DNA from: Candidatus Dojkabacteria bacterium
GTDB taxonomy: Bacteria > Patescibacteriota > Dojkabacteria > B142 > OLB20
NCBI GenBank assembly: GCA_035444565.1
Contig: DAOMOX010000003.1
Location: 159,488 to 223,487, forward strand
DNA: 64,000 nt
Direction of reading: 5' to 3'
Positions 15,112 to 48,665 of the stretch are shown here, piece after piece (the first letter of the stretch is position 1; each line of letters begins with the position of its first letter). The notes beneath the pieces were generated by a model. That model saw only the letters and a list, made by a program, of their open reading frames with translations, was not told the DNA's origin and did no database searches. The translations under genes and the position numbers were made by a program.

Positions 15112-17343
15112 ATGAGCAGACAAATTAAAAGCATACTTATAACTATTATAGTCGTTTTGTTCAGTTCACAAATTGTAACTGCACAATCGACTGATGAAGT
15201 AGTATTACAAAAGCCTTCCGAAGGTTCAACAATAAGCAATACTTATGAAATTGAGTGGAAGATTGTCGATGCTGATATTCAGGATCCTGCTTATTTTATA
15301 GATGTATTTAATCTTGCTTGCTCACAAAATGGTGGAAACCTAGGGAGAATTACCAATTCTGGAGCTGAAGTCGAAAATAATATTTACACTTATTCTTGGG
15401 ATACGTCTTCCGGGGATCTAGGAAATTCACTACAAAACGGAGGAAATTATTGTATGAGAGTATGTGGTATTCTGGCTGATGGAGGTAGTGTATACAGTAA
15501 ATGTGATAAAAAATCTTTTACATTTAGTTCAGAAACTACTGGGACGAACAAACCACCGCAGATTACACCTTCCAAAGATGGATTTAACGTAACGCTTAAT
15601 GAAATCTTTAGTTATAAAGTACAGGCTAGCGATCCAGATGGTGATGAGCTTAAGTATTCATTCCTAAATGCACCTGACTTTTTGACGATTGATTCAAAAA
15701 CAGGACAAATTTCCGGTAAACCAACGGAAGTTGGAGATATACGATTTATTGTAAAAGTAGATGATTCCAAAGGAGGAATTAGCACAGAAGAATTTATATT
15801 AAATATCCAATTAACAAGCGCCGAAAAAGAAGTCGTTTTTGAATTTCCAAAGTCCGGTTCAACAGTTACCCCAGAAAATAATACAATCAAATGGAAGGTA
15901 AAATCAGGTTTAACTGTTAAGTCGATAACACTTAGTTATTCGTCTGATAAGGAAGAATGGACGGAGATTACAAAACAGGATAGAGATTTAGGACAATATA
16001 CATGGAATATTAGTGACATTGAAGATGGAGAGTATTTCATTCAATTTTTACTTGTTGATTCGAATAATAAGCTATATGAAATTTTCAGTGATGGGTTTTT
16101 TGTTTCTGCGCAAGGTACAGTATCGGAAACAGAAATAACTAACCTAACACCAGAAGAGGGATCTACTGTAAATATCAATCGTCCTGTTATTAGTGCAGAA
16201 TTCAAGACACCAGATGGAGTTACTATAGATACTGAAAATGTTAATTTCACATTGAATGAAAGAATTGATCTTACACTTTGTGAAATTACTGCTAATTCAA
16301 TTAATTGTGAAATTGTTAGTGAGTTAAGTAATGATACGTACACTGCATTTATTGAAATTACTGATTCAGAAGGTGCTACCCTAGTCAAGGAATGGAAGTT
16401 TAGTGTTGACACCAATGGTGAGACTTCAGAGGAATCAGAAGATTCTGGAGGCCTTTCTGGAGATTCAATGCAGTTGATTCTCATTATCTTCGCTGTTGGT
16501 TTTCTTCTGATTGCTATACCTTGGAGTATATATTTGATAGTTAAGAAACGAAGAAATAAAGCAACAGAAACCACTAAATTGCCAGATAATACAGTTATCC
16601 ATCCAATTACCCCGATTACTCCTGAACCAGCACAACCGACAATTGGATCACAAGGACTAGACCTCGGTGTCCCAACAAATCCCCCTGTTGTCGATTATCA
16701 ACCTCAGAATTATTCTCTGGGTAGTACTCCAGTGAGCAACAATATGCAACCAGCGGCAGGAGATGTGTATTCCCCGACTGAGAATCTAAATGCATCGAAT
16801 ATACCTCCTGTTCAGGGAACTTATAATCAGCAACTACCTACAGATACATATAACTCTTTAGGTACAAATCCTAGCTATTCAAATCAAAATATAAACCAGA
16901 CTGGTACTCTCGCCGATGCAGTTTTCACAGAGCCAGAAATTGTTCCTGCACAAAATAACCTTGGAAATAATTTAAATCCAACTAATACTCAACCAATAGA
17001 CAACTCCGGTTTAGGCATGAACACTGAAGTATTACCAACGCAGGGAACACCAAATCCAGCTCAGGTTATTGAACCTTCCACCACAACTGATTACGGTTTT
17101 GATAAGCCAATTGTTACTGAACAACCTGCCATGTATCAAAAAGACGAAATTCCAGAATGGCTTGCAACAGATATCCCTGATACTACTGCATCAAACGAAC
17201 AAAATACAGGTGCGTCGACTATGGAGGATGTTTTAACAAAGACTCAGATACAAGAAGGTTCAAAAGTGTACGATCCCTATGGATTGGCTCTTAAAACAGA
17301 CGAAACGGAAGATCCTGATGTACCACCTCAGTTGAATAATTAG
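15112..17343 (+). CDS. Type I membrane surface protein. It has Ig/cadherin-like (He_PIG-like) extracellular domains, one TM helix and a long low-complexity P/Q/N/T-rich cytoplasmic tail.
   Basis: There is a signal peptide. The motif SYKVQASDPDGDELKYSFLNAPDFLTIDSKTGQISGKP is typical of putative-Ig cadherin-like domains. The TM helix is LILIIFAVGFLLIAIPWSIYLIV, followed by KKRRNK. The roughly 270-aa tail is proline- and glutamine-rich. Confidence 0.7.
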   Translation: MSRQIKSILITIIVVLFSSQIVTAQSTDEVVLQKPSEGSTISNTYEIEWKIVDADIQDPAYFIDVFNLACSQNGGNLGRITNSGAEVENNIYTYSWDTSSGDLGNSLQNGGNYCMRVCGILADGGSVYSKCDKKSFTFSSETTGTNKPPQITPSKDGFNVTLNEIFSYKVQASDPDGDELKYSFLNAPDFLTIDSKTGQISGKPTEVGDIRFIVKVDDSKGGISTEEFILNIQLTSAEKEVVFEFPKSGSTVTPENNTIKWKVKSGLTVKSITLSYSSDKEEWTEITKQDRDLGQYTWNISDIEDGEYFIQFLLVDSNNKLYEIFSDGFFVSAQGTVSETEITNLTPEEGSTVNINRPVISAEFKTPDGVTIDTENVNFTLNERIDLTLCEITANSINCEIVSELSNDTYTAFIEITDSEGATLVKEWKFSVDTNGETSEESEDSGGLSGDSMQLILIIFAVGFLLIAIPWSIYLIVKKRRNKATETTKLPDNTVIHPITPITPEPAQPTIGSQGLDLGVPTNPPVVDYQPQNYSLGSTPVSNNMQPAAGDVYSPTENLNASNIPPVQGTYNQQLPTDTYNSLGTNPSYSNQNINQTGTLADAVFTEPEIVPAQNNLGNNLNPTNTQPIDNSGLGMNTEVLPTQGTPNPAQVIEPSTTTDYGFDKPIVTEQPAMYQKDEIPEWLATDIPDTTASNEQNTGASTMEDVLTKTQIQEGSKVYDPYGLALKTDETEDPDVPPQLNN

Positions 17344-20300
17344 TTTAAACTTATCTTTTCAGGAGATTTAATATCGATTGAAGAGATTAATTCTTCGACT
17401 CTCGCTATTGGCTCTAGTTCACTAACGGAAATTGAGACAATTAGTAAATCATCCTCAATTTTAACTTCAGAGCTATCTCTATTGGTGAGGACTAAGTATT
17501 TGTTTTTATAATTTGAATCTTTGGTGATGTGATGGAACCCTGTTAATAAATCTTCTACTTCTACATTGTTTAATTCGAAGCCAGAATTGTTAATAACTCG
17601 AATATCTGGATATTTGTTATAGGAAACTACAACGGTAGGTGTTGGAATTGTTGAGTTTGACTCAACTTGTCCTTGTGATGAGTAATCAAGGAGTGCTGTA
17701 AGTGCTGGTAAGGCTAGAGCAAGACTGATTGACATAGATGCAATTTTCCTAGTACTAATGCCATTTAATGCTAAGTCTATCAAACTGAAAAGTGCATTTA
17801 TACCACCTACAATTGCCATTACACTATTTATTGTAGCCCCAGCAACCTTGTCAAATAAACTTCCAATCCAACCACCAAGTGCAGTAAACGCAGCGCTACT
17901 TACTGTGACAATTATTGCAGATAGAGGCGCTCCAGCTCCCAATGATGCTACTGTTGCACTTCCTGCAATTAATGCCCCTACACCAAATCCAACTGTTGTT
18001 CCAATCGTTGCACCAATCGCTGCTCCAATTCCAGTAATCGGAACACCAAGTGCTGCTAATATTGCTAAACCTGCTACCGAACCTATGGCAGAAAAAATCC
18101 CAGGTAACGCAGCACCTCTGATTGCTAATAGTACTTTGGGAAGAAAAGTGAGATTTGCTGATGCTGCAGCTGGTAATATCCCAGCTAAACTTCTTCCAAC
18201 AAATACCTTAGACATTATCCCCAATAGACTCCTATTTATAGCGCTCATACCTGAGACATAACCCATCATACTTAGATAGTTATTTAACGTTGTGAATTTC
18301 AAAAGAATTGTTTCGAGTAAACTACCTCCACTTTTAAACACGAAGTTATCTTTAAAGAAATCTTTCAGAGCTAGTCCTGGAGATCCACGATGAACATTTG
18401 TAAAATTGTCATACAAATCTTGGATTAGATTTGCCATGACTCTAGTGTTCCCAATTTGAAAGACAAGACGATTAAATGGAAGACCAGATAGTTTGGAGAG
18501 ATAACTACCGTATTTACCTGAAAGCAAGCGTCCTGCGATTGCTTGACCCCGACTTGTTCTAAGGATGTATTTAGCTGATGTAACTAATCCAAAAGTACCA
18601 GCAGTTGCGAGAATAGGATTTATCCCTAGGAAACCAGCTAGTGCTCCAGCTACTAATGCTGTCATAAGTCCAGTCTTAGCAGAGGAAAATAGTCGCGCAC
18701 CAGTACCTCCATATGCATTTCCTCCAGCTTTAGCCAGTTTCGCTGCTGCTTCTGGATTATTCTTTACAATATCGTTGGAAAATACTTTTGTGGTTGGATC
18801 TTTATAAATTGCTGAGCCTTGTTTTTGTAACCATGCAATAGGTCTGATTGGTGTTCGCGGTAATGGTGTATGCATTAAGCTGTCTATGGTTTCTAGTCCT
18901 GCTCCTGCTATTGTGGCACCTGCAAATATCGGCATTAACATACTTGCTGGCACACCTAATGCAGATGCCAAGAACATCGCTCCTCCTCCATACACAGCTC
19001 CTATAGGTGCTTTCTTTAGAAATGTTTTTCCAACGTGTCCAACATCTAATGCAGCGTGATAGGCAGGTTTAATGACTGGAACGAATTTGTTATCTACAAT
19101 TTTGTATACTTTGTCATACTGTGCAAATAGACCATTCTTCATTTCTCCGGGTAGTTTGACAACATTTTTAGCGAGCTTCAAGGTTGAACTCGCGGCTGAT
19201 TGCATTCTTTGTCCTACCGAATTCGTGGAGAAGAAATTCCCCATCCTGGATGCTAATGATGTAGTTTTGAGGACCTTGATACCAGATTTGATAAAGTTGA
19301 CTCCTGAGTCAACAATTTTTTTAACAAGGAATTTAAACACAAGACGCATTATTCCATCAGATTTCTTTGATTTGCGTTTCTGTTCTTTTAAGAAGGTAGA
19401 TTTGTTTGTAACAAATGTCGAAATCTGGTTCCTCTTCATTTTAATACCTTTTCCGAATCGAGACTCCTCTAATTTCTCAGAAAATTTAGAACCAATCCCT
19501 TCATATGCTCTTACAACTTCCTCTTTCAGAGCAATTTTTACGACACCAGGTATATCTTGTCTAAATTGATCTGTGCTTTGTAGACGTGTAAGGTCAATTA
19601 TTCCAGCTTTGAATTGGCCTGATTCAATTTTATTGAAGGCTGTTTCAACTTGCTTTGCGCGAATTAGGTCATTACCTCTAGATAAATAAGGGTCAGTGGC
19701 TATGGCAAGATTGACTTTGGTACTCGCCAAACTTGCTGCAATTCCGCTTTTTGACTCATTTCGTTGAGTGATGTTTTCTTTTACTTTTCCAGACAATCTT
19801 ATGTTTACTTTTGGATCTTCATCAATTTCTCTATCGAGATGTGTAACTTCTTTCTCATCGAGTGAACCTAGGTACTTTGTTTCCAATAGGTCTTCAAGCT
19901 TATCAATCTCTGCTGGATTATATTCACTGAGATTAATTTCACTTACATTTACTCCTGTTAATCCTGTGATGAATTCTTGATATTTGTCAGCTCGGATTCT
20001 CTGGTGTGTATCGTCATACAGATGTTCGAGTGAAGCAAAAAAAGGAACTTCTATGTATTCTGCTGTTTTGGAAGCTTGTAGATTTGTTTTGAAATTACTT
20101 ATAACCTTAACCCTGTCAATATTTTCACGACTATTGGCAAGCTTGTGTTCTTCAATATCGGTATTTTCCACTGCTTCTTCAACAGTCGTTTTTGCCACAT
20201 TAACTTCTTTTTTCTTCAATTCAATGAACGCAGCTCGAGTTGGCTTATACGTGGTGATAACTTTGTATAAAGAGTTGAATGTTTCAGTTAATCCAAGAAT

Positions 20301-20783
20301 TTCTGATTCTTTGCCTGTCAGTTCTTTCTTAATATTTTCATTCCTTCGAGCGTTTTTCTCTTTTATTACGTCGGTTGCAAGTGTGAGATATTCATCATAA
20401 CGAGAGGTGATTTTGCCGTGTAGTTCAGATAATTGTGAGAAATTGTTATATACCACTTCCAGGTCTTTGGGGTCCACATCTGAATCATGAAGTGAATCGA
20501 CAAACTTCTGTGCTCTGTTTAATTTAGTATTTGTACCCTTTACAGTTTTGGCTAAGTCTTCGTTTCTGAATTCACCTGCTTTAGCGTCACCTAAAGCTTT
20601 CATTCGGGCCTCAATTTTTTTAATAGTTTCAATTACATACTTTAAATCCTCTTTATCCTTTTCAGAATAAGCGAAAGCCCTCTGTATTTGTGACAATACA
20701 TAACGTTCTTGTTCTTGAAGTTGTTCTAGCAACTTCTTAAGATCTTCCGGTAAAATATTGTTTTCTGGTATTGCTCCTACCAT
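17340..20783 (-). CDS. Hypothetical 1147-aa bipartite protein. Its N-terminal ~470 aa is a charged coiled coil. Its C-terminal half is Gly/Ala-rich with multiple glycine-zipper-like TM segments. It is the last gene of the six-gene operon.
   Basis: The ORF is long. The N-terminus has K/E-rich heptad-like sequence. The C-terminal segments include AIGSVAGLAILAALGVPITGIGAAIGATIGTTVGFGVGALIAGSATVASLGAGAP. The reverse-strand ORFs 17758..18261, 18565..18807, 19072..19569 and 19984..20400 are antisense artefacts. Confidence 0.7.
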   Translation of the reverse strand: MVGAIPENNILPEDLKKLLEQLQEQERYVLSQIQRAFAYSEKDKEDLKYVIETIKKIEARMKALGDAKAGEFRNEDLAKTVKGTNTKLNRAQKFVDSLHDSDVDPKDLEVVYNNFSQLSELHGKITSRYDEYLTLATDVIKEKNARRNENIKKELTGKESEILGLTETFNSLYKVITTYKPTRAAFIELKKKEVNVAKTTVEEAVENTDIEEHKLANSRENIDRVKVISNFKTNLQASKTAEYIEVPFFASLEHLYDDTHQRIRADKYQEFITGLTGVNVSEINLSEYNPAEIDKLEDLLETKYLGSLDEKEVTHLDREIDEDPKVNIRLSGKVKENITQRNESKSGIAASLASTKVNLAIATDPYLSRGNDLIRAKQVETAFNKIESGQFKAGIIDLTRLQSTDQFRQDIPGVVKIALKEEVVRAYEGIGSKFSEKLEESRFGKGIKMKRNQISTFVTNKSTFLKEQKRKSKKSDGIMRLVFKFLVKKIVDSGVNFIKSGIKVLKTTSLASRMGNFFSTNSVGQRMQSAASSTLKLAKNVVKLPGEMKNGLFAQYDKVYKIVDNKFVPVIKPAYHAALDVGHVGKTFLKKAPIGAVYGGGAMFLASALGVPASMLMPIFAGATIAGAGLETIDSLMHTPLPRTPIRPIAWLQKQGSAIYKDPTTKVFSNDIVKNNPEAAAKLAKAGGNAYGGTGARLFSSAKTGLMTALVAGALAGFLGINPILATAGTFGLVTSAKYILRTSRGQAIAGRLLSGKYGSYLSKLSGLPFNRLVFQIGNTRVMANLIQDLYDNFTNVHRGSPGLALKDFFKDNFVFKSGGSLLETILLKFTTLNNYLSMMGYVSGMSAINRSLLGIMSKVFVGRSLAGILPAAASANLTFLPKVLLAIRGAALPGIFSAIGSVAGLAILAALGVPITGIGAAIGATIGTTVGFGVGALIAGSATVASLGAGAPLSAIIVTVSSAAFTALGGWIGSLFDKVAGATINSVMAIVGGINALFSLIDLALNGISTRKIASMSISLALALPALTALLDYSSQGQVESNSTIPTPTVVVSYNKYPDIRVINNSGFELNNVEVEDLLTGFHHITKDSNYKNKYLVLTNRDSSEVKIEDDLLIVSISVSELEPIARVEELISSIDIKSPEKISLN

Positions 20784-20790
20784 ATGTTTT

Positions 20791-21756
20791 TTATAATCTA
20801 CTATTAATTACTTCAATTTGCTCCCTAATTTGTGCAAGTCGTTCATTCAATTCTTTGGCGTCTCCATCACGATTTAAAATCTGTTCTCTTACGATTCGTT
20901 CTTGTTCTCGATGTTCTTGTAATAATTCGAGACCCTGTTCTTTTGTTTCGAATTCTAAATCCAAGTTTTTTCTAATCTTCTGTTCTTGCTGAGTAATTTT
21001 GTATTGCCTATATAAATTTTGCATTTGCATCTTTACTCCCTTTGGAGTCTGATCAAGTGCAGTATTTAGATTCGATACGTAATTAATCAAACGATATGCA
21101 TCCTGTTCGTCTTTATTCCTGAAAACAACCATTTGATTGTCGTCGTTATACCTTGCAATTATATTATTTAGAATTGTTTCTGCCTGTGCAACAGAGATTT
21201 TTGTTTCTTTTATGTATCCTCTTGCCAGAGGTTCTAGCCCTCGTACTTTTGCAATTGGTTTATTGTACATATCAGATTTATAAAACTTGTAAATCTCTTT
21301 CTTCTTTTCATCTACTCTTAACTCTGGCTTAACGGAAACCCTTTCCATTCCGATTCTGGCTCTATCGATCCGTATCCATTTATCCATTAGTTCTTTTAAT
21401 GTTCGAACAGTAGGTCTTTGTTTCTCATAGCTTTCTACAGTAGTAATTCTTTTCCAAGAGGCTGCTTTGATATAGTCTTCTATGACTCTTGAATCTTTCG
21501 AAAGTTGACCCAGACCAACCAGCCTGGTTTCCTGATCGAAAAGCCCTAAATTGATGTATTCATAATATTTATCTCTTAATTGTGTGATTGATTTCACCAA
21601 TTGCTGTCGTAATTGACCAGTACTCATACCTTGGGGCAGAAAGTCAACTGTGATTAGCTTTGTAAAAGGTTCATCACTTTCTAGGAATTTGATCATCTTT
21701 TTAAGTGATACCCCATTTACAGGATACATTTTGTATTTTTCTATCGATTCTGCCAT
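20791..21756 (-). CDS. Hypothetical 321-aa protein with a C-terminal coiled coil. Operon member.
   Basis: It lies 7 nt upstream of the 1147-aa gene and shares a boundary nucleotide with the upstream gene. I recognise no motif. Confidence 0.6.
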   Translation of the reverse strand: MAESIEKYKMYPVNGVSLKKMIKFLESDEPFTKLITVDFLPQGMSTGQLRQQLVKSITQLRDKYYEYINLGLFDQETRLVGLGQLSKDSRVIEDYIKAASWKRITTVESYEKQRPTVRTLKELMDKWIRIDRARIGMERVSVKPELRVDEKKKEIYKFYKSDMYNKPIAKVRGLEPLARGYIKETKISVAQAETILNNIIARYNDDNQMVVFRNKDEQDAYRLINYVSNLNTALDQTPKGVKMQMQNLYRQYKITQQEQKIRKNLDLEFETKEQGLELLQEHREQERIVREQILNRDGDAKELNERLAQIREQIEVINSRL

Positions 21757-22919
21757 TAGTCAGTTAATAGATATTCGTCTAATGTTAAATATGGATTTTC
21801 AATCCCACTCGTAACGATGTTAAATATTAATTTTTTAAAGTCTGTACTAAATCTAATATCGTATAGTTCAGTCGGAATCCTCAAAGTGTCTCCAACATCA
21901 TCATATAGATATAGTTCCACGAGATGATGATATTTTTCGTATAATGTTGATGCGTCTTTGTGATCTATAAATTTAATTTTATAATAATTCTCAGAGACTG
22001 TATAACCTTCTTTGTGGTATAGGATTAATAAATCCACAATATCTTTGACTAAATTGGTTACGATTTTCTTGTCTAATTTGTTCTTTTTAATCATTAGCTC
22101 AACAAATTCGTTTAGCAATGGATCAATGTGATCAAACTTCTTGTAATAACCCTGAGGGTCATTATCAGCTTCTTTCGAGTTGAGTGACTTCACGTTTGTA
22201 ATCGCTTCTACTGGTTTAAATCCTCTATCAATATAATTGTAAACATCTTTGTCGGTACGAATTACTATGGGTTGTAACAATTCTTTAAAAAGTTCTATTA
22301 GCTCGGATTGATTAAAGGAAACTAAGAATACATAATCAGTGATATCAAAAACATGTTTAAGCATTCTGTGAGCCAAATCTAAATAATTACTGTAACTAGA
22401 CATTGTTGCAGCTATTTGGTTAGTCTTTTTTTCAAGTTCTATAGTCGAATCCAAGTCAACGGATCCATTTTCTAATAATTTGATTGCATCGGGTACATAT
22501 ATTTCTAAAAATACCGGAATATCACTAGGTTCCTTCATAAGCTTTGCTAGTTCAGCCTCCTCTTGTGTTAGTATTCTGACTAAAGAGTACTTTGCAAAAT
22601 ATTTCTTTGCTTGAATAAATCGAAGTGTATAGATGTCTTTCTGAATAATTTTAAATTTCTCGAAAGTATCATCCATCTTCAAGTCGATATCTACTCCATT
22701 TTCTTTTAGTAGCGTCGTAGCGGATGAGTTGTATTTTTGAATAAGTGTCAGCTGATCTTTTGTAAGTGGATTTTTAAGTTGGACTTGATAGTTCTGCGTT
22801 GGATCAAGTAAGAAAATGTAATTAAACACCATAGGTGAAATTGATTTGGCGATGTCTCTCTCTATAGCTATGAGAGTATTGTCCTCAACCTTATGATTTA
22901 CGGCATTTGGATTGGTCAT
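21756..22919 (-). CDS. Hypothetical 387-aa soluble protein. Operon member.
   Basis: The ORF is tightly packed in the operon. It has no TM segments and no motif I recognise. Confidence 0.6.
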   Translation of the reverse strand: MTNPNAVNHKVEDNTLIAIERDIAKSISPMVFNYIFLLDPTQNYQVQLKNPLTKDQLTLIQKYNSSATTLLKENGVDIDLKMDDTFEKFKIIQKDIYTLRFIQAKKYFAKYSLVRILTQEEAELAKLMKEPSDIPVFLEIYVPDAIKLLENGSVDLDSTIELEKKTNQIAATMSSYSNYLDLAHRMLKHVFDITDYVFLVSFNQSELIELFKELLQPIVIRTDKDVYNYIDRGFKPVEAITNVKSLNSKEADNDPQGYYKKFDHIDPLLNEFVELMIKKNKLDKKIVTNLVKDIVDLLILYHKEGYTVSENYYKIKFIDHKDASTLYEKYHHLVELYLYDDVGDTLRIPTELYDIRFSTDFKKLIFNIVTSGIENPYLTLDEYLLTD

Positions 22920-22935
22920 GCTGTTTTATTTCAAT

Positions 22936-24540
22936 TTATTTCTTCTTGCCTTTAAAAATAGCGCCCAGTCCACCAAACACCTGTCCAGCAGCTTTGGATG
23001 TAGTTTGTCCAACTTGTCCCATTGTCTGGCTACTGCTTTGTACATTCAAGAAATTATTCACCATATCAGGAATAGTTGGAGTGGCAAGAAAGATAATATA
23101 TATCACTAATGCTTTTGTGATACTTGCTGATGTCGAAATCTGATCTGATGAATATCCCAATAAAGGTGGTGTGAATCTGAATTCTCCAGCATTGGAAATT
23201 CCAAGTGCCTCACTTCTACCTATGATTATCATTAATAGAAAGACAGCATAAACGACAATGAATGTAATACTTGCCGCCGCTAATGGTTTGATCGCATTTA
23301 TTATTGAGCTTTTTGTTTTGGAAGGAATTGCAGCTATAAAGAATAACCATGGTAGAAATATCGGTGATATGGCAAGAGTAACATAGTTTTTCAATAATGC
23401 TAGGAACAATCTAAACGCAGCCATAAATGCAGCAAGTCCTAACACTAAATCCAGCAAAGTATTCCCTACTTCTTGGAAACCTGCATTATTTGCTGCCTCT
23501 TCTCCTAATGGGACAACAGAACCGACAAATTTCAACAAACCTAAATTTCCAACATCAATACCATCTGGAACAATATTGTTAACACATTCCTCGTCTTCAC
23601 CAGTTCCCTCGCATCTAAAAATCTCTGCATTCGAAGTTCCCCATATAGCCCATACACTTACAAATGGGTCATCTGGTTGTAAATAGTAAAGGTCGGGTTT
23701 GTCGGGATCGTCTTTTGAAATATCAAGATTTGTAGTACTGGTCACAAATTCATAACCGGGTGCTGTAGGAGATGTGAGAAGTGTACTTTGCACAACATTA
23801 CTACCTATAAATATGAAGTCTACAAAGAATCCCGCTATAGGATAACTCAGACTTACCAGAACTAATGAAACGATTAAAGAAGGTATCGAATTTATAATAC
23901 TTACAGCAGTTTGACCTCCCAGTGACTGTCTGAAAAGTATTAAAAATGCTAACACAATAACAATCACAACGTAAAACGCGTAAACCATATTCCTAGACCA
24001 TTGCCATAAATCCAGCATCGGAAGTAATAGATTATATCCTAGTCCTGGGAAGTAGAAATTATTGTTCACAGAATTAAAATTATCATCATCAGGATCCTGA
24101 GCGTAAACACTTAGTAATTCTCTATCTTGAGTTCTTTGGTAGAGGTCATATGCCCAGACAATGGAACTACTAGGTGGTGAAACATACAGTGTGTCGATTA
24201 ATGCTCCTGCACCGTCTATAGCGGAAATACTATTAGGTCCTGGCTGGAATAGATAAACTTCTTGTGCCGATTCTGGTTCACAAGGCGCGGAACCGATTAG
24301 ACAATTCGCTGTATCGATTAGCGCTGGTGCGAAACCTAAATCTTTAGCATAAGTGCTGACTCCTGACCCTGCAATAAACAAAACTACAGCGAAGACAAAG
24401 CCAAATGTAAGTAAAACTTTCTTTTTCATATTAGAAAATTTGGGTAGAAACATTTTAATGTATTTAAATCTAAATTTAATACAGTATATGAATTGGGGGA
24501 TAAGATTGCAAACTCTTAGGAGAAGAAATTTAAGTTTCAA
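22936..24540 (-). CDS. Polytopic membrane protein. It has a signal peptide, an N-terminal extracytoplasmic domain, TM clusters flanking a large acidic Cys-containing loop, and a G/Q/T-rich C-terminal tail. Operon member. The true start is probably the internal MKKKVLLTFGF.
   Basis: The signal-like segment is MKKKVLLTFGFVFAVVLFIAGSGVSTYA. Hydrophobic helices include MVYAFYVVIVIVLAFLILF, LIVSLVLVSLSYPIAGFFVDFIFIG, LDLVLGLAAFMAAFRLFLALL, LAISPIFLPWLFFIAAI, ITFIVVYAVFLLMIIIG and ALVIYIIFLATP. Confidence 0.65.
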   Translation of the reverse strand: MKLKFLLLRVCNLIPQFIYCIKFRFKYIKMFLPKFSNMKKKVLLTFGFVFAVVLFIAGSGVSTYAKDLGFAPALIDTANCLIGSAPCEPESAQEVYLFQPGPNSISAIDGAGALIDTLYVSPPSSSIVWAYDLYQRTQDRELLSVYAQDPDDDNFNSVNNNFYFPGLGYNLLLPMLDLWQWSRNMVYAFYVVIVIVLAFLILFRQSLGGQTAVSIINSIPSLIVSLVLVSLSYPIAGFFVDFIFIGSNVVQSTLLTSPTAPGYEFVTSTTNLDISKDDPDKPDLYYLQPDDPFVSVWAIWGTSNAEIFRCEGTGEDEECVNNIVPDGIDVGNLGLLKFVGSVVPLGEEAANNAGFQEVGNTLLDLVLGLAAFMAAFRLFLALLKNYVTLAISPIFLPWLFFIAAIPSKTKSSIINAIKPLAAASITFIVVYAVFLLMIIIGRSEALGISNAGEFRFTPPLLGYSSDQISTSASITKALVIYIIFLATPTIPDMVNNFLNVQSSSQTMGQVGQTTSKAAGQVFGGLGAIFKGKKK

Positions 24541-24943
24541 TATCTAGTTCGGACAATCTTTTTCTATAATTTGTAGTTTTCTCGAGTTCGTCGTTAATTA
24601 ATTTTATTAATTCCTCTCGATTTTTTTTACTCAGAATCATTAACAAAGACTTAATCATGCCTTCAAAGTACTTTTTCATGTGTTCGTTAACTTTCTCCTG
24701 AACCTCAGGGAATTCAGAATATAATTTGATAAATTCATTTATAAGTTCTTGATTGTCATCTATATCGGCAAGAGATTCTATCTTGTCGTCTAGTCCTTTT
24801 CTTTCAAGTTCCAGATTCACTTCTACTTCAAGATATGTAAGAAAAATCTCTATGTACTCTTCTTGCATTTGAGCCCACATACTGTTCGTATAGCCTAGTT
24901 TAGATTTTACAAATTCTGATACTTTTGGGCTTATGAAGAACAT
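24530..24943 (-). CDS. Small acidic hypothetical protein of 137 aa. Operon member. It overlaps the downstream gene by 11 nt.
   Basis: The ORF is E/D/K-rich and predicted helical. It lies 15 nt downstream of the 1822-aa gene. Confidence 0.55.
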   Translation of the reverse strand: MFFISPKVSEFVKSKLGYTNSMWAQMQEEYIEIFLTYLEVEVNLELERKGLDDKIESLADIDDNQELINEFIKLYSEFPEVQEKVNEHMKKYFEGMIKSLLMILSKKNREELIKLINDELEKTTNYRKRLSELDIET

Positions 24944-24958
24944 AGGTTTTATTTAAAA

Positions 24959-27900
24959 TTATGAAGTAACACTTTTGGCAGTATCTCCTATTACACTTGA
25001 GACGTTCTGAAGTCTATTGTCTGGAACATCAACGTTATCTAGGGCAAGTGCAGACTGTTTGAGTACGTCTTCCGCTCCTTTAACTGCAGCGGCTAATCTG
25101 AGTCGACCTCTTGTGCTATTGAATCTCGGGTTGCTCAATGCTTGTTCAAACGCACTCTCTTGGTTATATAACTCTGCTTCTGATTTAATTGCATTAACTT
25201 TCCTTTTTGACCACAAATCTGCAATTTGAGTAACCTTGTTTGAGATGAAGAAATAGTCAGCGAGTAGTAGTCCGATAGCTGTGGGATTGAGGAATGCTTT
25301 TGACATGATTTGTGCAATTTCAGGATTTACATATCCTCCAAAAATTGAGGCAAGAACACCTGCTGTGACAGTCCATCTTGCGATTTGATCAAATCTAGCG
25401 AAGCCGACCCATTTTTCTTTTTGTTTGCTTGCTTCTGACTTGTATTGAGCTGCGGCTTTTATCATTGTTTGATGGTAGAAGTACAATTCAAGAACCTTTG
25501 TCCTCTCTACTACTACATCTTGGATTGCATTGGTCATTAATCCACTACTATCTGGTAAAGACCTATCATTTTTATTTCCAGGTGTGTGTTGTTTAATTTC
25601 ACCGTAGTTTTGTACTTGTGTTGATTTATTAATACCTTCGAAACTTTTGATTTTCCTCGCTCCAACCCCAGCAGAACTTCTAAGAATTATTGCAGTATCT
25701 ATGTCTTTGAATGTCCGTATGTCTGTGACGTCATTCACTAAATACTGTTTTGTGTGGGGATCTTTTAAATACTTCCCACTTCCATCGGGTCGAAATGTTT
25801 CATTTCTTAATGTTACTGGCAAATCTTCTGGAGATAGCTCTAATAAAGATATACTTTGTTGCGGAGTTAAATGTCTCATTAACGTTACAGGGTCACTATG
25901 GGCCTGTAATTGACTTATTTTTTCTCTCAAATTATCCCTATTAATAATCATCCTTGAGTAGTATTCTCTGATGGCTATTTCTTCCGTTGCTGGAGTAGTT
26001 GCTGTTATAGTAGCTAATTTAGCTTGTGCATTATCTACTTCAAGTTGTGCTGCTTCTATTTCAGTTTTTAAGTTGTCAAATCTCATTTGTAATTGTGCTG
26101 GATCTGTGCGTTGTTTAATCTCTTCTAGGATTTTCCGTTTTGTAAGTTCATCTGTGTCATAGTAACCAGGAATTATCTCAAAAGCCTTTCCTCCAATAGT
26201 CACTATTTCTCGTTCACCACATACACCAGTGGCTGTAGCCTCATACGTCCTAGCAAGTAGATACGCCTGAATATAATCCTTCACATCTTGTAATGGGAGG
26301 TTTTTGCCGTTAATTTTCACAAACCTTCTCTGTTTTTTCCAATCTTCAAGACTTCCTCCAGGTTTGATTGCTTCTACGGCATCTACAGCATCGATTACGT
26401 CTCTTATCGTAAATGTTTTATCATCTTCATGTGCCTTAAGTTGTGCGTCCATAATCGCACTTGAAATTTTATCGAAAGTCCTTCCTTGTTGGATAAAGTC
26501 TTCATCGGTTCCCATCTCCAGTTCTGTTGTATAAACTGATTTGATTCTGAATTGTTTTGTTAAACCTGCCCAGTAGTCAGTCACAGTACCAAGTCGAAGT
26601 TGCATGTCTTTCGGTAGACTTTTTCCGTTTAATGTTTGATTGGGATTGAATGCACCCTTAAGGATATTGTCTATTTCAGCATCTCCATATCCTCTTGCCT
26701 TCAGGCTGGTTCTCATTTTTCCTTTTGAGTTATCTATTTCGGCGAAGAGATTAGCATCGTAATACTTATCAATATCCTCTAATTTAGAATAAACCCCCGG
26801 CTGTCCACCCTCTCCATCAAAATATAAAAGTCCAATTCTATCAGCCGCTAATAAATATGCATGATTCTGTTGTATTTGTGCATGGGAAGTCATTGCTTCA
26901 AGAGTTTCTCTCCAGATAACCTCATATAAGCTTTTCATTTCAAGACCATAGAGATTGTCAATTCCCAATCTTTCTCTCCGGGCTTTATCACTTTCTTTAT
27001 AGAATAACCTAGAACTTTGTAACCTCTTACCAATTTCGGTATATTCCAATCCGAAAGGTAAAAGTCGGTTTCGATTTATCTGTCTAACATCTTTGGTCAG
27101 TCCTAGTTCCGCTAAATCTCTAGGTTTTAATCCTGATTCAGAGAAAAACTTACTTATAATACCTCCGATAATGGGAATTGTTCCAACTACAGGGGTCTCC
27201 ACCTTCTGGAATGAATACCTGACATAATCTTCTTTCGCGAGTAATCCAACGTGTGTTCTCAAATCTACTGCTTCGGATAGATCATATTTATCAGTTGAAA
27301 CTTGTCTTTCAGTACCTATTTCTTCGGTTGTAGGTTTCAGTCCGTCCTCGTTTTGAAGTAGTGAACGATAAATTGAATAAACTCTATTGATTTTGTCATC
27401 AATTTCTTTAAGTCTGTCTTGATATTGTTCATCAGTCCATCCTTCCCTTTCGGCTTGAACTCTTAATCTTCTTACAGCATAGCTTCTGATTTTATTAGTG
27501 TAAATTTTTTCCGTCGTATCACAATACTCACGTGCTGTATGCTCCTTGTCTTCCTTTTTATCTTCTTCTTTATCTTCCTCTTTAACCTCCTCTTTAACCT
27601 CCTCTTTATCTACTTTCGGTGTATACTCTGGTAATTTGAGACCAAGATGTCCGTCCTGATAGATTAGGTCATAGATAAATTCAAGCGTGGATTGAGAACT
27701 TAGTTGATCATATCTAGTTAACCTATTGCTCCATTGAACTATAGTGCTCTTTGTAATTTTGTCTTTATTAGCTGGATTTTCTACTAAATTATTTAAAAGT
27801 CGAATGGTAGCGAGGGATTCGATAGCATTTTCATCTAAGTCTCCCCTATTATTTTTCTTGTTACCTCCTTCTTGAGATTTGTTCTCTATAGTAAATTCAT

Positions 27901-30427
27901 TTTGTTTATATCCTAAACTTGCTAGTGTTAATTTTTCCGCTTGACCTTCCTCTCCTTCTATTCCAGAGAAGTGGTTTTGCATCTGGGTAACTAATTCCTC
28001 AACTTTTTCTGACCTCTTAAATTCATTTTCAGACAATAATTTTTGTTCATTTTTAACCCTATATTCAAGTAAGGCATTTTTCTTAATATTAAAAACACTT
28101 TTTTCACTACTTTTTTCCCACTCTTCTTTACTAATTCCAGTATGTTCAGTAATTATCTCATCTAACCTTTTGTCAGTAATTCTAGCCTGATTCTTATCTT
28201 CTTCGGTTTTCGCTTCCTCAATTTTTCTAAACTCTGCTGATAAAGCATGTGCGAGAGATTTGATAGATTCAAAACGCTTATCAATTTCAGCTTGTCTTTC
28301 GGCATCATGCTTAGAATCTTCCCTTAAAGGTTGGATATGCCTATAGAAAGCGTCAGCAATTTTATATGCAGTAAACTGGTTGTTTTGTTGAATTCTAATT
28401 TTGTTGTATTCTTCTTTTTGTTTATGCTGAACCTCGTGGTTGATTGTCTCTTGTGTGCCAGTATGGTGAAATGTCATTATATAGTTCAAGTCTTTTGATG
28501 CAGCTCCATCTACATACCTTGCAGTACGTGTATGGGCTTCAGTTTTTTCTGTTGACTCTGCCCTATCGTTAAATCTCACTGTAAGTCTTTTCGGGGTTTC
28601 TTCTTCGATTCTCACTTCTTCCCCTAAACTCTCATCGGTTACAACCTTGGATGTTTCCTTTGGAATTACTTCCTCTACAATGGTAAGTTCATAGGTTTTT
28701 AATTGTAACGAGTATAAAAGTAATTCTTCAGAGGCAAATTTCAAACAATAATAGCCTTGTTCAGTACTGAGTTCGACCCTTGTTCGGTCCACTTGCCTGT
28801 CAGAATCACCTTCTTTCCCAAGCAGTAATAAATTATTTATATTTCTAGTAAAGGTGGTGAGTGCTTCTCCTTCCAATGAAGTCCCTGATGTTATGTCAGC
28901 AATAATATCTTTAATTATCGCGTCTTCTTTTTCTCTTGTTAGTATCTCCTGTTCTTCATCAGAAAGTTTTTCGGATACCTCTAAATACTGATCATACATC
29001 CTGGCTTGCTCTTCAATTGTAAGTGATGGTCGCTTTTCTTTAAAGTCCTCTTCTTGACCAGAATCTTCTTTTTTGGGCTCGATTTTTACATAATCTATTC
29101 CCAATTCTGTTTGATTGGTTGCTTTTCTTTGTTGATTAATTTTCTCTATGCCCTTTTTAAAGCCTTCATACTCAGTGATTATAAATCTAGAGGTGTTTTC
29201 ATTCCTTCTCCTAAAGTAATCTTTATATGCTTCCATTTGGTAACGGGCTTCCTGAAGATTTCTTTCAGTAGCACGATCGGCTTTCTCTGGAACAGTCAAT
29301 CTGTATTGCTTAAATAAATCCTCGATTTCTTCTTCGGTTACGATGTCGGTCGGATTAAGAGAAAATGTAAGACCCTCAATAGTTTCGTCTAATAGCTCTT
29401 GTCTAGCTTTTACTGCGGTCATATTGTATGAAAATATTATTTCCTCCAATATGTCTAATTTTTCTTTTGAATCTCTTTGAATATCTTCGTCACTTGGGGG
29501 TTCTTCAATTTCTGGTGCTTCCAGGAGTTCAGCTGATGTTTCTACGGTGATTTTTTCTGAAGCTACAGTCGATTCTCTTATTTCTTTGATATCTTCTTCA
29601 TGAATGTCATCTAAAGTTATCACATTTTTTTCTAGTGCTCTTCTAATATATGAGAATTCTTTTCTTTTGAAAAATTCTTCCATTTGTTTTGGGTCCTCAG
29701 TTCCAGTTAGTTTCCCAAATCTTTCTTTTAACTGATTCAAAGCGGCTGCACTTTTATCCGTATCTTCTGCTATCTCCTCCGTCTCTATCTCTTCAAGCTT
29801 TAATTCTGTTACATTTTCCTCTAATTCCTCATCAAAGCTTTTGGATTCCCCTTCTTTTAATTTCCTTTCTGCAGATCTGGCGAGTGCCCTACCAGCTAAT
29901 TGAACAGATTTAAATTCAACCTCATCTTGTTTTGACTGTGTAGTTTCCTGTGGTGCTGACTCTAATTTGGTTTTTGCTTTTCTAATTGCATCCATTTCTG
30001 TGGATGTCAGGGGTTCGTTTCTATTTAGCTTCTCTTGTGCTGATTTTGCCATTTGTTGCAAACCGCGCAGACCGAGAACGTATGATTGAAGACTTACGGG
30101 TAATTTGTTTCTGTCAGTTCCCTGGATAGTAGATGCGTTCTTTAAAACTAATTTCCCATTGTCATCAATTCGAATATTTGCACCAACTTGGAATTTCTTA
30201 CCTTTGCCATCAACTTTTGCTTTTGTGAGTTTTTCTATACTTTTCGCGACTTTCTCAGACTCCTTCGCAACTTTTTCTAACTCTTTTTTGGTTTTTTCTT
30301 TTGGTTCTTCTTCGATTTCTGGGATTTCTTTAGGTTTTGCATCATCAGGCTGAACGTCAGCATTTGGGTTGCCATACACTATGTCTTTCAATTCTTGAAT
30401 TCTATCCATGTGGGTTATCTTAATCAC
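24959..30427 (-). CDS. Giant 1822-aa hypothetical protein. It is highly charged (E/K-rich) and largely coiled-coil, with a C-terminal pair of hydrophobic helices forming a membrane anchor. It is the first gene of the operon.
   Basis: The ORF runs 5.4 kb uninterrupted. It contains acidic-lysine runs such as EEVKEEVKEEDKEEDKKEDKE. The C-terminal helices are WTVTAGVLASIFGGYV and AIGLLLADYFFIS. It has no nucleotide-binding motif. The reverse-strand ORFs inside it are artefacts. Confidence 0.7.
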   Translation of the reverse strand: MIKITHMDRIQELKDIVYGNPNADVQPDDAKPKEIPEIEEEPKEKTKKELEKVAKESEKVAKSIEKLTKAKVDGKGKKFQVGANIRIDDNGKLVLKNASTIQGTDRNKLPVSLQSYVLGLRGLQQMAKSAQEKLNRNEPLTSTEMDAIRKAKTKLESAPQETTQSKQDEVEFKSVQLAGRALARSAERKLKEGESKSFDEELEENVTELKLEEIETEEIAEDTDKSAAALNQLKERFGKLTGTEDPKQMEEFFKRKEFSYIRRALEKNVITLDDIHEEDIKEIRESTVASEKITVETSAELLEAPEIEEPPSDEDIQRDSKEKLDILEEIIFSYNMTAVKARQELLDETIEGLTFSLNPTDIVTEEEIEDLFKQYRLTVPEKADRATERNLQEARYQMEAYKDYFRRRNENTSRFIITEYEGFKKGIEKINQQRKATNQTELGIDYVKIEPKKEDSGQEEDFKEKRPSLTIEEQARMYDQYLEVSEKLSDEEQEILTREKEDAIIKDIIADITSGTSLEGEALTTFTRNINNLLLLGKEGDSDRQVDRTRVELSTEQGYYCLKFASEELLLYSLQLKTYELTIVEEVIPKETSKVVTDESLGEEVRIEEETPKRLTVRFNDRAESTEKTEAHTRTARYVDGAASKDLNYIMTFHHTGTQETINHEVQHKQKEEYNKIRIQQNNQFTAYKIADAFYRHIQPLREDSKHDAERQAEIDKRFESIKSLAHALSAEFRKIEEAKTEEDKNQARITDKRLDEIITEHTGISKEEWEKSSEKSVFNIKKNALLEYRVKNEQKLLSENEFKRSEKVEELVTQMQNHFSGIEGEEGQAEKLTLASLGYKQNEFTIENKSQEGGNKKNNRGDLDENAIESLATIRLLNNLVENPANKDKITKSTIVQWSNRLTRYDQLSSQSTLEFIYDLIYQDGHLGLKLPEYTPKVDKEEVKEEVKEEDKEEDKKEDKEHTAREYCDTTEKIYTNKIRSYAVRRLRVQAEREGWTDEQYQDRLKEIDDKINRVYSIYRSLLQNEDGLKPTTEEIGTERQVSTDKYDLSEAVDLRTHVGLLAKEDYVRYSFQKVETPVVGTIPIIGGIISKFFSESGLKPRDLAELGLTKDVRQINRNRLLPFGLEYTEIGKRLQSSRLFYKESDKARRERLGIDNLYGLEMKSLYEVIWRETLEAMTSHAQIQQNHAYLLAADRIGLLYFDGEGGQPGVYSKLEDIDKYYDANLFAEIDNSKGKMRTSLKARGYGDAEIDNILKGAFNPNQTLNGKSLPKDMQLRLGTVTDYWAGLTKQFRIKSVYTTELEMGTDEDFIQQGRTFDKISSAIMDAQLKAHEDDKTFTIRDVIDAVDAVEAIKPGGSLEDWKKQRRFVKINGKNLPLQDVKDYIQAYLLARTYEATATGVCGEREIVTIGGKAFEIIPGYYDTDELTKRKILEEIKQRTDPAQLQMRFDNLKTEIEAAQLEVDNAQAKLATITATTPATEEIAIREYYSRMIINRDNLREKISQLQAHSDPVTLMRHLTPQQSISLLELSPEDLPVTLRNETFRPDGSGKYLKDPHTKQYLVNDVTDIRTFKDIDTAIILRSSAGVGARKIKSFEGINKSTQVQNYGEIKQHTPGNKNDRSLPDSSGLMTNAIQDVVVERTKVLELYFYHQTMIKAAAQYKSEASKQKEKWVGFARFDQIARWTVTAGVLASIFGGYVNPEIAQIMSKAFLNPTAIGLLLADYFFISNKVTQIADLWSKRKVNAIKSEAELYNQESAFEQALSNPRFNSTRGRLRLAAAVKGAEDVLKQSALALDNVDVPDNRLQNVSSVIGDTAKSVTS

Positions 30428-30608
30428 CTAATTCTACCACAGAAGTGGTTTTTGGTGTTCTAAAACTAAAAATACACATTTATATCTTAAACTTTATTTA
30501 TATGTATAACAACATTTACGAATTTCGAATTTAACTAATGAACATTCTTGTTTTTTCTTATCAATTTTGCCACACTATAGATGTTACTTTAATTAGTGGT
30601 GAATTTTT

Positions 30609-32276
30609 ATGAATAATCCTGCGAATATTTATAATTCCAGTAATCAACCTAGTGCTGCGAACAATTCACAGGCTATGAATTCTAATTTGCAACAATTAAG
30701 TTCGACACAGGCTGACTACATTAATCAGTTCGTAGGAACCACACCACAATCTAGTTACCCACAAGCTCCAAATATGACGACACAGCCACAGCAACAAATG
30801 AACCCTGTAGCTCAACAACCACAAGTAAATCTTTCAATGAATCAACCTGTAGCTCAAGTCCAACAACAAGTGGCACCAGTACAAAGTTATGGAGGTCAAA
30901 ATTCACCTAATTTATATACAGATCAACTTCAAAATAATCCAAACCCAATTTCGAGTGAACCCATCAGTTCACCGCAACTATCTAATGATTATTTAAATCA
31001 GGAACCTGTTGATAATAGTTTGCTGAATACACCACAGATTCCTCCATACGAAGAATTCTCTGTACCAACCTTAAATGATTCATTACAAAATCAGCCATCT
31101 TCACCTATTGAACCTCAGATAAACTCAACTGAACAATCATTCAACTCTACAAATGTGCCAACTTCACAATTGAACCAATCGTATGGAAACCCTGCAACTC
31201 AGACAAATGTTATGCAACAGCAATACAATCCTGCGATTCCGCAAGATTATACAGCTCCAGCTCAACAAGTAAGTCCATCTACACTTAACACTTTGCCTCA
31301 GAATCCACAAAGTCCCGTCAATGTGGAGCCACAACTTATGGGCGCACAGCAAGTCAATGTAAATCAAGATTATGCAGAAAGATATTCAAACAGCCAATGG
31401 TTACCTACTCCACTTAGTCCTGCGAACCAGATGCAAGCTATGCCTCAAATGAACCAACAACAATACAATCCTGTTTACCAAAACCCTACTACAAACTTAA
31501 CAGTCGATAACGATTTCTCAGATGGAGCGAGTCTCGGAGATGATTCATCACTTTCAACAGGTTTCCTTCCTGCATTTGATGATAATTCAGATGATTCTAT
31601 GCTTCCTGCAACTAACGATGACGATGATGATGTCTTTGGTAATCTTGACGAACCTGATGATGTAATACCTTTTGGTTTTAGTGATTATGATCCTAATGAA
31701 CAAGTAACTGGAAGTCTTGATTCTTTAAGTGGTTTCGAATCGCAAAGTCTAGAGGAGGAAGCAAATCGTATTGATGTCGATTTCTCAGAATCAATGCCAA
31801 CTAATTCACAGAATGTTGGAGTTCTAACACAAGAACCCCAGAGAGCATCCGTGGCACAAATGCCACAAACTATGGTGCCAAATCAAACTGTGTCTGCAGT
31901 TAGTTATGCTGCTCCAGCTCCAACTTCTCAAAATCAAATGGAACCACAGGTTCAACAAGTAGCGATGCCAGTTGATTCTGAATTGTCTCCTACTGCGAGA
32001 TTAAACCAACTACTTGAAGAAGAGGAAAAAGCTGAAAAAGTGATTATGCAAAAACAGAAACAATCTGTAATGAAAGTTGCAAAATCACCTAAAATGGTTG
32101 AGCCAAAATCAAACATCTTCAAACAAACCAATGATGATGTTGCATTCCAAGGTGATATCCGAAATGAACTATCTGCCAAGAAACCCGCAAGTAGATACTT
32201 TATGATTATCAGTTTGATTATAATCATTAGCGTAATTGGCTTCTTGTTAGTACTCTTGGGTTTAACCCTGTTATAA
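30609..32276 (+). CDS. Q/N/P/S/T-rich low-complexity protein of 555 aa with a single C-terminal TM anchor (tail-anchored)
   Basis: The composition is extremely biased, for example QPQQQMNPVAQQPQVNLSMNQPVAQVQQQVAP. There is an acidic stretch DDDDDV. The terminal helix is YFMIISLIIIISVIGFLLVLLGLTLL. Confidence 0.65.
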   Translation: MNNPANIYNSSNQPSAANNSQAMNSNLQQLSSTQADYINQFVGTTPQSSYPQAPNMTTQPQQQMNPVAQQPQVNLSMNQPVAQVQQQVAPVQSYGGQNSPNLYTDQLQNNPNPISSEPISSPQLSNDYLNQEPVDNSLLNTPQIPPYEEFSVPTLNDSLQNQPSSPIEPQINSTEQSFNSTNVPTSQLNQSYGNPATQTNVMQQQYNPAIPQDYTAPAQQVSPSTLNTLPQNPQSPVNVEPQLMGAQQVNVNQDYAERYSNSQWLPTPLSPANQMQAMPQMNQQQYNPVYQNPTTNLTVDNDFSDGASLGDDSSLSTGFLPAFDDNSDDSMLPATNDDDDDVFGNLDEPDDVIPFGFSDYDPNEQVTGSLDSLSGFESQSLEEEANRIDVDFSESMPTNSQNVGVLTQEPQRASVAQMPQTMVPNQTVSAVSYAAPAPTSQNQMEPQVQQVAMPVDSELSPTARLNQLLEEEEKAEKVIMQKQKQSVMKVAKSPKMVEPKSNIFKQTNDDVAFQGDIRNELSAKKPASRYFMIISLIIIISVIGFLLVLLGLTLL

Positions 32277-45904: not shown

Positions 45905-45931
45905 ATTTGTAATTTAAATTATCAATTTTAA

Positions 45932-48162: not shown

Positions 48163-48665
48163 TGATTTTCGACAAAAAGAAACTAAAAGGTATGACACTG
48201 ATTGAAGTTCTTTTGTATCTAGCCATTTTCGGAATGTTTTTTGTCGTTATTATTAATTACTTCTTTTTTGTTCAAGATAATAATCAACTTTCAGGAGAAG
48301 CGTTAAAAATTGATAGAGGAGTAATACTATTATCACAACATTTTGAAGATAGTTTTGAAAGAACAACGTCTATTGGGGGATCAACTATTTTTAATAATAA
48401 TAATGGAGCCTTATATTTAACAGGTCCTTCTAATATTAACTATACTGTATCTGATTTTGCCACAAGTGACGCAAGGCTACAGTTTTTCGATGGTGCTATA
48501 ACCAAACAAATCACAAGGAACGATGTTGAAGTTACCAAATTTTTACTTGAAGAAATTCTAGATAATAGCGATACTAATATAGGTGTGGAGATTACTGTGG
48601 GTATCAGATCTAAATCTGATACATCAATCAGTACTGAATTCACCAATTCATATATTTTTGATTGA
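48159..48665 (+). CDS. Minor pilin / pseudopilin
   Basis: The prepilin segment is KKLKG|MTLIEVLLYLAIFGMFFVV. The product is 168 aa and the gene overlaps its neighbours by 4 nt. Confidence 0.7.
   Translation: MMIFDKKKLKGMTLIEVLLYLAIFGMFFVVIINYFFFVQDNNQLSGEALKIDRGVILLSQHFEDSFERTTSIGGSTIFNNNNGALYLTGPSNINYTVSDFATSDARLQFFDGAITKQITRNDVEVTKFLLEEILDNSDTNIGVEITVGIRSKSDTSISTEFTNSYIFD

Follow-up and report, generated by a model that had tools for sequence, protein, structure and literature searches.

Type IV secretion systems (T4SSs) belong to the small set of machines whose necessity for epibiotic life has been demonstrated in a cultivated patescibacterium (Wang et al. 2023). Those of Patescibacteria, or candidate phyla radiation (CPR) bacteria, are phylogenetically nested within the mating-pair formation (MPF) class MPF-FATA. 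VirB4 is the one component universal to T4SSs. Recognisable homologues of VirB6 are few in Microgenomatia and lacking in Gracilibacteria, 'suggesting extreme sequence divergence' (Quinonero-Coronel et al. 2025, PMC12102498). Given that recognisable homologues are so rare, diverged VirB6 proteins are to be expected in such T4SS clusters. Here we describe an operon of six minus-strand genes, g1 to g6, in a 64,000-nucleotide stretch of a Candidatus Dojkabacteria genome (GenBank assembly GCA_035444565.1, contig DAOMOX010000003.1, positions 159,488 to 223,487), hereafter the window. On balance, we lean towards reading the operon as a Dojkabacteria-specific, fast-evolving membrane module of the T4SS-like apparatus of Patescibacteria, which is essential and MPF-FATA-related, with g3 as a diverged VirB6-type protein. 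Most probably it is a rearranged part of the known patescibacterial T4SS rather than a wholly unknown machine.

The closest described system is the patescibacterial T4SS itself, as encoded by SEML1_0006-0019 of Southlakia epibionticum (Wang et al. 2023). Both it and the present operon are found in CPR hosts, and a VirB6-type membrane protein of the g3 family occurs in the T4SS clusters of other CPR classes. A giant membrane protein is possibly shared as well (g6 and the cluster giants called c4 below), and relaxase and coupling protein are not encoded in cis, as in most CPR systems. Unlike those clusters, the Dojkabacteria locus lacks VirB4, VirB3/PrgI, TrsD and a VirB2-like pilin array, and four or five of the six operon genes have no counterpart in them. 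The operon is also co-directional, tightly packed and placed at a housekeeping locus rather than beside pilin arrays and an extracytoplasmic function (ECF) sigma factor.

For g3, the nearest characterized proteins are TrwI of plasmid R388 (PDB 7o3v) and, from the Dot/Icm system of Legionella, DotA (PDB 9ngy), VirB6-family subunits that form a central pentameric protochannel or platform (review, PMC12857230). Like these, g3 is a polytopic helical protein with a large extracytoplasmic loop, and in other CPR the g3-family gene comes right after pilin genes, which fits a pilus-assembly platform. It differs from both in its very low sequence identity to them (7-10 %), in having no Pfam TrbL match and no VirB5/IcmX-like secreted partner nearby, and in its monoderm host; g3 is known here from its sequence and predicted structure. 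PrgH (pCF10), ConG (ICEBs1) and TcpH (pCW3), which we liken to g3 by their description only, are polytopic MPF-FATA-type subunits of monoderms, but the systems they belong to transfer DNA and always have genes for VirB4 and a coupling protein close by. A last parallel is the rvh T4SS of Rickettsiales, whose genes are dispersed in the reduced genome of an obligately host-dependent bacterium and include VirB6-type proteins with very large hydrophilic extensions ('extended VirB6') or giant neighbours. The rvh giants, however, are VirB6 paralogues, whereas no similarity to g3 could be detected in g1 or g6, and rvh serves a diderm envelope in contrast to that of the monoderm Dojkabacteria.

The g3 family in patescibacterial T4SS clusters

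A first, sequence-only reading of the stretch saw no recognisable family among the six products and proposed an undescribed system. At the level of direct sequence matches its observation holds: none of the six proteins gave a match at threshold in Pfam, NCBIfam, PHROGs or PADLOC, nor in PDB sequences, where profile searches with the g1, g3, g4 and g6 alignments returned nothing or only coiled-coil noise. The g3 profiles, in particular, found no VirB6 chain in the PDB. The conclusion drawn from it fails for g3, whose family sits in T4SS clusters together with VirB2-like pilin arrays, PrgI/VirB3 and VirB4.

The g3 protein has an N-terminal signal or anchor and about six long transmembrane (TM) helices, as judged from hydropathy and an AlphaFold model. 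It contains six cysteines, with an acidic Cys-containing loop of ~100 residues and conserved Cys pairs in the extracytoplasmic parts. At least five TM helices and a large extracytoplasmic loop, the traits of VirB6 proteins, are thus both present, and the modelled fold is similar to that of the solved VirB6-family subunits TrwI and DotA. Fold and context both place g3 with VirB6, while the sequence signature of the family is missing; we therefore take it to work like VirB6 and consider it a probable, very diverged member of that family.

The context comes from the relatives of g3. A search with the protein returned 28 clusters, the most distant of which adjoin genes for PF18895 ('T4SS_pilin'), a CHAP hydrolase and unannotated giants. 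Scanning a single genome from each GTDB species with a profile then gave 156 relatives, nearly all in Patescibacteria, with hosts among the Curtiss-, Woese-, Shapiro-, Gottesman-, Pace-, Levy- and Chisholmbacteria, WWE3 and others. The open reading frames (ORFs) of 89 loci were clustered and their representatives annotated, which revealed a recurrent arrangement. It starts with an opposite-strand ECF sigma factor, 3-10 VirB2-like pilin genes and a secreted protein of ~1000 aa. Next come a divergent gene of ~300 aa (c2), the g3-family gene and a convergent giant of 850-1300 aa that has no TM segment (c8, c25, c26), then the c4 giant with C-terminal Gly/Ala-rich TM helices and a ~340-aa protein (c19). 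The locus ends with a PrgI/VirB3-like protein, c6 (a protein of ~300 aa) and a VirB4-like ATPase (P-loop_TraG/AAA_10). In these clusters the position of the g3-family gene is always just behind the array of VirB2-like pilin genes.

Within 10 kb of the g3 homologue, pilin-family ORFs were found at 62 of the 76 non-Dojkabacteria loci, and at 34 of the 36 with full flanks; a PrgI-like gene was found at 21 of the 76 and a VirB4-like ATPase at 14. When small upstream ORFs were sampled, 49 out of 50 matched PF18895 T4SS_pilin and 13 also TrbC/VirB2, and the precomputed Pfam labels at loci L008 and L009 agree with a T4SS_pilin context. The recurrent neighbours c2, c4, c6, c8, c14, c19, c23, c25 and c26 have no Pfam match, which leaves a large part of the CPR T4SS cluster without annotation. 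Taken with this setting, the g3 family (L016-L089, for example L030:9734-11386 and L027:9491-11269, together with L008 and L009) offers a strong candidate for the VirB6 that was 'missing' from Microgenomatia-type systems.

A second, fainter link concerns g6. Its family aligned with the c4 giants in hhalign at 89 % (E 2e-6), and at 82 % (E 1e-5) with a deeper profile, which suggests, but does not prove, a relationship between g6 and these giant membrane proteins of CPR T4SS clusters. HMM-to-sequence searches (HMM, hidden Markov model) between g6 and c4 were negative, and neither g6 nor c4 showed an hhalign link to the g3 family. As for g1, an equation with the ~1000-aa giants that follow the pilin arrays was considered and rejected, since these carry a signal sequence at the N-terminus and lack a C-terminal hairpin.

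Conservation, selection and divergence of the operon

The gene order g1-g6 recurs, at the same chromosomal site, in every Dojkabacteria-type relative with visible context, which answers a check that the sequence-only reading had proposed; the most distant relatives have no separate g5. The orthologous products measure, in order, 1650-2070, ~140, ~500 (membrane), ~390, ~320 and 1020-1150 aa. The flanks are constant too, with Obg and a variable tail-anchored protein on one side and the He_PIG protein, SBP and DUF3048 on the other. At L092-L096 this context is retained, a longer g6-like gene (1215-1561 aa) stands directly after g4, and a separate g5 is missing. Lengths and position there suggest a fusion or split of g5 and g6, which is unproven as the N-termini show no detectable homology.

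Between the window and a strain of 97-99 % identity, the ratio of nonsynonymous to synonymous substitution rates (dN/dS) is 0.05-0.18 for all six genes, which are therefore under purifying selection. Given this range and the fact that gene order is kept in relatives of 26-58 % identity, the six ORFs are not chance ORFs, and the same data contradict pseudogenisation or a lack of conservation in relatives. This is a functional operon that has been inherited vertically.

In comparisons with L014, L012 and L007, the operon outpaces its syntenic flanking genes by far in its rate of divergence. At L014 the flanking DUF3048, SBP and He_PIG proteins are 92 %, 78 % and 66 % identical to those of the window, compared with 28-58 % for the products of the operon. 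Among the six genes, g1 varies most between strains, with 93.5 % identity, a dN/dS of 0.18 and a mosaic dS. In comparisons of g1 with L010, L002 and L004, blocks of 85-90 % identity (dS ~0.3) lie beside blocks with a dS of ~0; in L004 the C-terminal third of g1 is 81 % identical and g2-g5 are 99-100 % identical. This mosaic suggests recombination within the gene.

Gene calls, products and neighbourhood

The features of the window are collected in Table 1. All six minus-strand ORFs listed by the sequence-only reading are present, and they take up one fifth of the window as it had estimated; two of its start codons need revision. The start of g1 is most likely the ATG at 30409, as in the NCBI call, and not the GTG at 30427. 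For g3 it is most likely the ATG at 24429, as in the NCBI records; an alternative start at 24453 would give 505 aa, and the TTG at 24540 is an unlikely start. Four of the junctions are as tight as described (15 nt, 16 nt, a 1-nt overlap between the g5 start and the g4 stop, and 7 nt). The supposed overlap of g2 and g3 disappears: because the g3 start is corrected, this junction becomes a gap of ~100 nt. The gap contains a promoter-like site, and another candidate lies upstream of g1 (minus strand, 30603-30574); promoter and terminator scans gave no more sites overall than expected by chance. All six products are 'hypothetical protein' in the NCBI annotation.

Table 1. Operon genes and other features of the 64-kb window
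Feature	Coordinates	Strand	Description
g1	24959..30409	minus	Giant, 1816 aa; a mechanical GTG start at 30427 would give 1822 aa
g2	24530..24943	minus	Acidic, 137 aa
g3	22936..24429	minus	Polytopic membrane protein, 497 aa; VirB6/DotA-like T4SS channel-type subunit
g4	21756..22919	minus	Soluble orphan, 387 aa
g5	20791..21756	minus	Soluble basic orphan, 321 aa
g6	17340..20783	minus	1147 aa; E/K-rich N-terminal part, Gly/Ala-rich hydrophobic helices, C-terminal domain
Divergent intergenic region between g1 and the Q/N-rich gene	30410..30608		Likely operon promoter region
Surface protein gene	15112-17343	plus	743 aa; signal peptide, He_PIG Ig domain, one TM helix, long low-complexity tail
Q/N-rich gene	30609-32276	plus	555 aa, divergent from g1; long Q/N/P-rich region, probably disordered; single C-terminal TM anchor
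Type IV pilus cluster	44396-58758	plus	PilB-like ATPase, PilC, pseudopilins fused to Laminin-G and leucine-rich repeat domains, 2319-aa beta-helix protein
tRNA-Val (GAC)	943-1016	minus	Sole RNA gene in the window (ARAGORN, Rfam)

The compositions, hydrophobic segments and Cys content of the products are as first described. Three of the six are membrane-anchored, none contains a Walker A motif, no ATPase is encoded in the operon, and the operon is specific to this lineage: g1, g2, g4 and g5 have no detectable relative outside it. Signal peptides are absent from g1, g2, g4, g5 and g6, and therefore the bulk of the mass of these five is predicted to be cytoplasmic or membrane-embedded.

The g1 protein (E 11.7 %, K 9.2 %) is E/K-rich over its first ~1000 residues. 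A hydrophobic hairpin at ~1682-1729, found in all orthologues, is followed by a tail of ~90 aa, and relatives can be aligned only over the C-terminal ~230-500 aa (26-40 % identity). The g2 protein has 29 D+E against 19 K+R, no TM segment and only sub-threshold matches in family scans. Its gene is always directly upstream of a g3-type gene, with orthologues of 137-157 aa at L007, L011-L014, L090, L091 and L096. As g2 has no signal peptide, the operon offers no secreted VirB5-like candidate. No TM segment was found in g4 or g5. The best-conserved soluble member is g4, at 28-39 % identity across Dojkabacteria-type relatives; it has no family, PDB or profile link, and its AlphaFold model, built from a shallow alignment, is unusable at a mean confidence (predicted local distance difference test, pLDDT) of 45.

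In g6, an N-terminal part of ~600 aa is followed by Gly/Ala-rich hydrophobic helices at ~600-1030 and a beta-rich C-terminal domain of ~110 aa. E+K make up 19-24 % of the N-terminal half; in the C-terminal half, which contains multiple hydrophobic segments, G+A rise to as much as 40 %. Conservation is concentrated in the C-terminal domain and the Gly-rich membrane part, the latter with an invariant G..G.WIGS.FDK region. The family is small, with 28 relatives among 1.84 billion representatives, and all those that can be placed lie in Dojkabacteria-type synteny. A degenerate DNA pattern for G..WIGS.FDK hit 40 loci, just two of them real and both with the same gene order, and word-indexed homologue searches with g6 and g4 returned only 2-3 close relatives. 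The modules that precede the first TM helix vary among g6 relatives and include He_PIG repeats (P0058, 84-451) and a J domain (P0045, HPD at 616). Given that He_PIG Ig-like repeats are usually extracellular and J domains usually cytoplasmic, they provide conflicting hints on the topology of the N-terminal half. The label 'coiled-coil', given to g1 and to this half of g6 by the sequence-only reading, is not demonstrated: a crude test of heptad periodicity reached significance in only 3 out of 51 windows along g1 and 3 out of 31 along g6.

The operon lies among housekeeping genes (ClpP, MutL, MurB, AlaRS, CTP synthase, Obg, a P-type ATPase and a Mur ligase), with housekeeping genes alone in the 10 kb beyond the left end, and the GC content of the window, ~35 %, is unremarkable. 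The surface protein gene is convergent with g6, overlaps it by 4 nt at the stop codons and is present in all relatives, yet it is fast-evolving (26-66 % identity). At L002:13521-15097 and L005:13521-13961 it is reduced to its last ~149 residues and fused to a truncated MutL; MurB and AlaRS come next in an order inverted with respect to the window, which may reflect a real inversion or deletion in a strain, or else a chimeric assembly. On the other side, the proposed co-occurrence with the Q/N-rich gene holds in so far as relatives have a gene of 282-633 aa at the same position, and clear homology is confined to L013 (40 %, C-terminal half). The type IV pilus cluster stands 14 kb away, separated from the operon by housekeeping genes and showing no sign of linkage to it.

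Competing explanations and significance

A T4SS with ATPases encoded elsewhere in the genome was the finding that, on the sequence-only reading, would undo the claim to novelty. The tie of g3 to T4SSs brings the operon close to this, but not fully, because only g3 is confidently T4SS-linked, g6 is linked weakly, and VirB4 is on record from other genomes of the class. The source is Table S1 of Quinonero-Coronel et al. (PMC12102498), where VirB4 is present in two GTDB-class Dojkabacteria genomes. The authors also point out that T4SS genes may be scattered in islands, as they are in Rickettsia.

The assignment of the operon to a T4SS is a computational one, and several results weigh against it. 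Neither g3 nor its Dojkabacteria relatives match Pfam TrbL/VirB6 (PF04610), and a single member of the family out of 72 does so, at a sub-threshold E of 0.005. The g3 model has a mean pLDDT of 66, and Foldseek found no significant match for it in the PDB. The alignment of g6 with c4 is short, stays below 90 % and is confined to the Gly-rich TM region and the domain after it. Only g3 is confidently tied to T4SSs; no hhalign link above 10 % connects g1, g2, g4 or g5 with any protein that recurs in the CPR T4SS clusters. Searches with HMMs of pilin, PrgI, VirB4 and further proteins of these clusters gave no match in a six-frame translation of the window, in the 10 kb beyond its left end or in eight related loci. 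Finally, the Dojkabacteria VirB4 record rests on the two listed genomes, of which this is not one.

If the operon is nevertheless a T4SS module, g3 would form an oligomeric protochannel or platform in the cytoplasmic membrane, by analogy with TrwI of R388 and DotA of Dot/Icm. The multi-pass g6, with its glycine-zipper helices, and the hairpin-anchored g1 would be giant membrane-tethered partners whose bulky N-terminal parts are cytoplasmic, and g2, g4 and g5 may serve as soluble adaptors or assembly factors. VirB4, as the source of energy, VirB3 and the pilins would be supplied in trans from loci elsewhere in the genome. Such a system would exchange macromolecules with the host cell. A role at the host interface is plausible, and the fast divergence of all six proteins may reflect adaptation to it.

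The missing partners could instead mean that the machine has no need of them. Under this alternative, which we regard as possible but fairly unlikely, the operon encodes an autonomous, lineage-specific envelope apparatus that has merely recruited a VirB6-like channel protein and works without VirB4 or pilins. Together with its two giant partners (g1 and g6) and three soluble ones (g2, g4 and g5), g3 would then make up, for example, a feeding or attachment channel or a gated conduit. The neighbourhood is indeed wholly unlike that of other g3-family genes: T4SS-cluster families (c1-c9, c25 and c26, including pilin, PrgI and VirB4) occur at none of the 13 Dojkabacteria loci, and neither this locus nor the 12 Dojkabacteria-type orthologous loci co-encode VirB2, VirB3 or VirB4, in contrast to the prevalence of pilins elsewhere. 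Five of the six proteins are lineage-restricted orphans, the cassette is maintained as a six-gene unit at one chromosomal site, and it has no ATPase in cis. However, a VirB6-type protein without the VirB4 ATPase, universal as that is in T4SSs, has no precedent, and VirB4 is reported in Dojkabacteria genomes. The weak link of g6 to a T4SS-cluster protein and the known dispersal of T4SS loci also speak against an autonomous apparatus. In the strictest form of this alternative, the operon would encode a self-contained machine of a novel kind, in which the two membrane-tethered giants and three small adaptors, and not a VirB4 ATPase, drive or gate a protochannel like VirB6/DotA; we think this unlikely. 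If true, it would mean that T4SS channel subunits have been exapted into an ATPase-independent conduit at the host contact of Dojkabacteria.

Still more doubtful is a membrane-attached cytoskeleton or scaffold of giant helical proteins, acting in shape, division or polarity, with the likeness of g3 to VirB6 a coincidence between helical bundles. The absence of enzymatic motifs would suit it, as would g1 and the N-terminal half of g6, which are long, E/K-rich and, having no signal peptide, probably cytoplasmic; the PDB matches of the g6 N-terminal profile are all coiled-coil proteins, at non-significant E-values. Heptad periodicity is weak, however, such rapid divergence is unusual for core cytoskeletal proteins, and a family found beside pilin, PrgI and VirB4 genes at dozens of independent loci is no coincidence of fold.

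We give very little credence to an anti-phage defence or toxin-delivery island with g6 as a glycine-zipper pore-forming effector. Glycine-zipper helices occur in pore-forming toxins, one g6 relative weakly matches Pfam Gly-zipper_Omp, and the genes are fast-evolving, but the PADLOC matches of the six proteins are weak, unrelated and sub-threshold (E 4e-4 to 0.03), no small immunity-like genes, nuclease domains or NTPase domains were seen, and the cassette is fixed at one locus across the lineage rather than patchy. A prophage or mobile-element remnant, with g1 as a structural giant and g6 as its tape measure, is effectively refuted: the operon diverges fast, and the size and helical-plus-hydrophobic architecture of g6 loosely recall phage tape-measure proteins, but a known phage structural module is contradicted by PHROGs, where none of the six proteins has a match below E 0.02, by 2.9 million IMG/VR contigs that contain no g3-family relative, by housekeeping neighbours with no capsid, terminase, portal or integrase nearby, and by an identical chromosomal position across deep divergence at an unremarkable GC.

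We thus return to a T4SS module, for which two points are new. The diverged VirB6 of Microgenomatia-type T4SS clusters, and with it the missing channel subunit across many CPR groups, has a strong candidate in a widespread CPR family that was not annotated before. In Dojkabacteria, g3 has left the pilin/VirB4 cluster and is locked in a conserved, fast-evolving cassette with two giants and three small orphans. Its giant, fast-evolving partners, found only in this lineage, are candidates for lineage-specific, and possibly host-specific, parts of the apparatus, and the Dojkabacteria operon provides a natural test of the modularity of CPR T4SSs.

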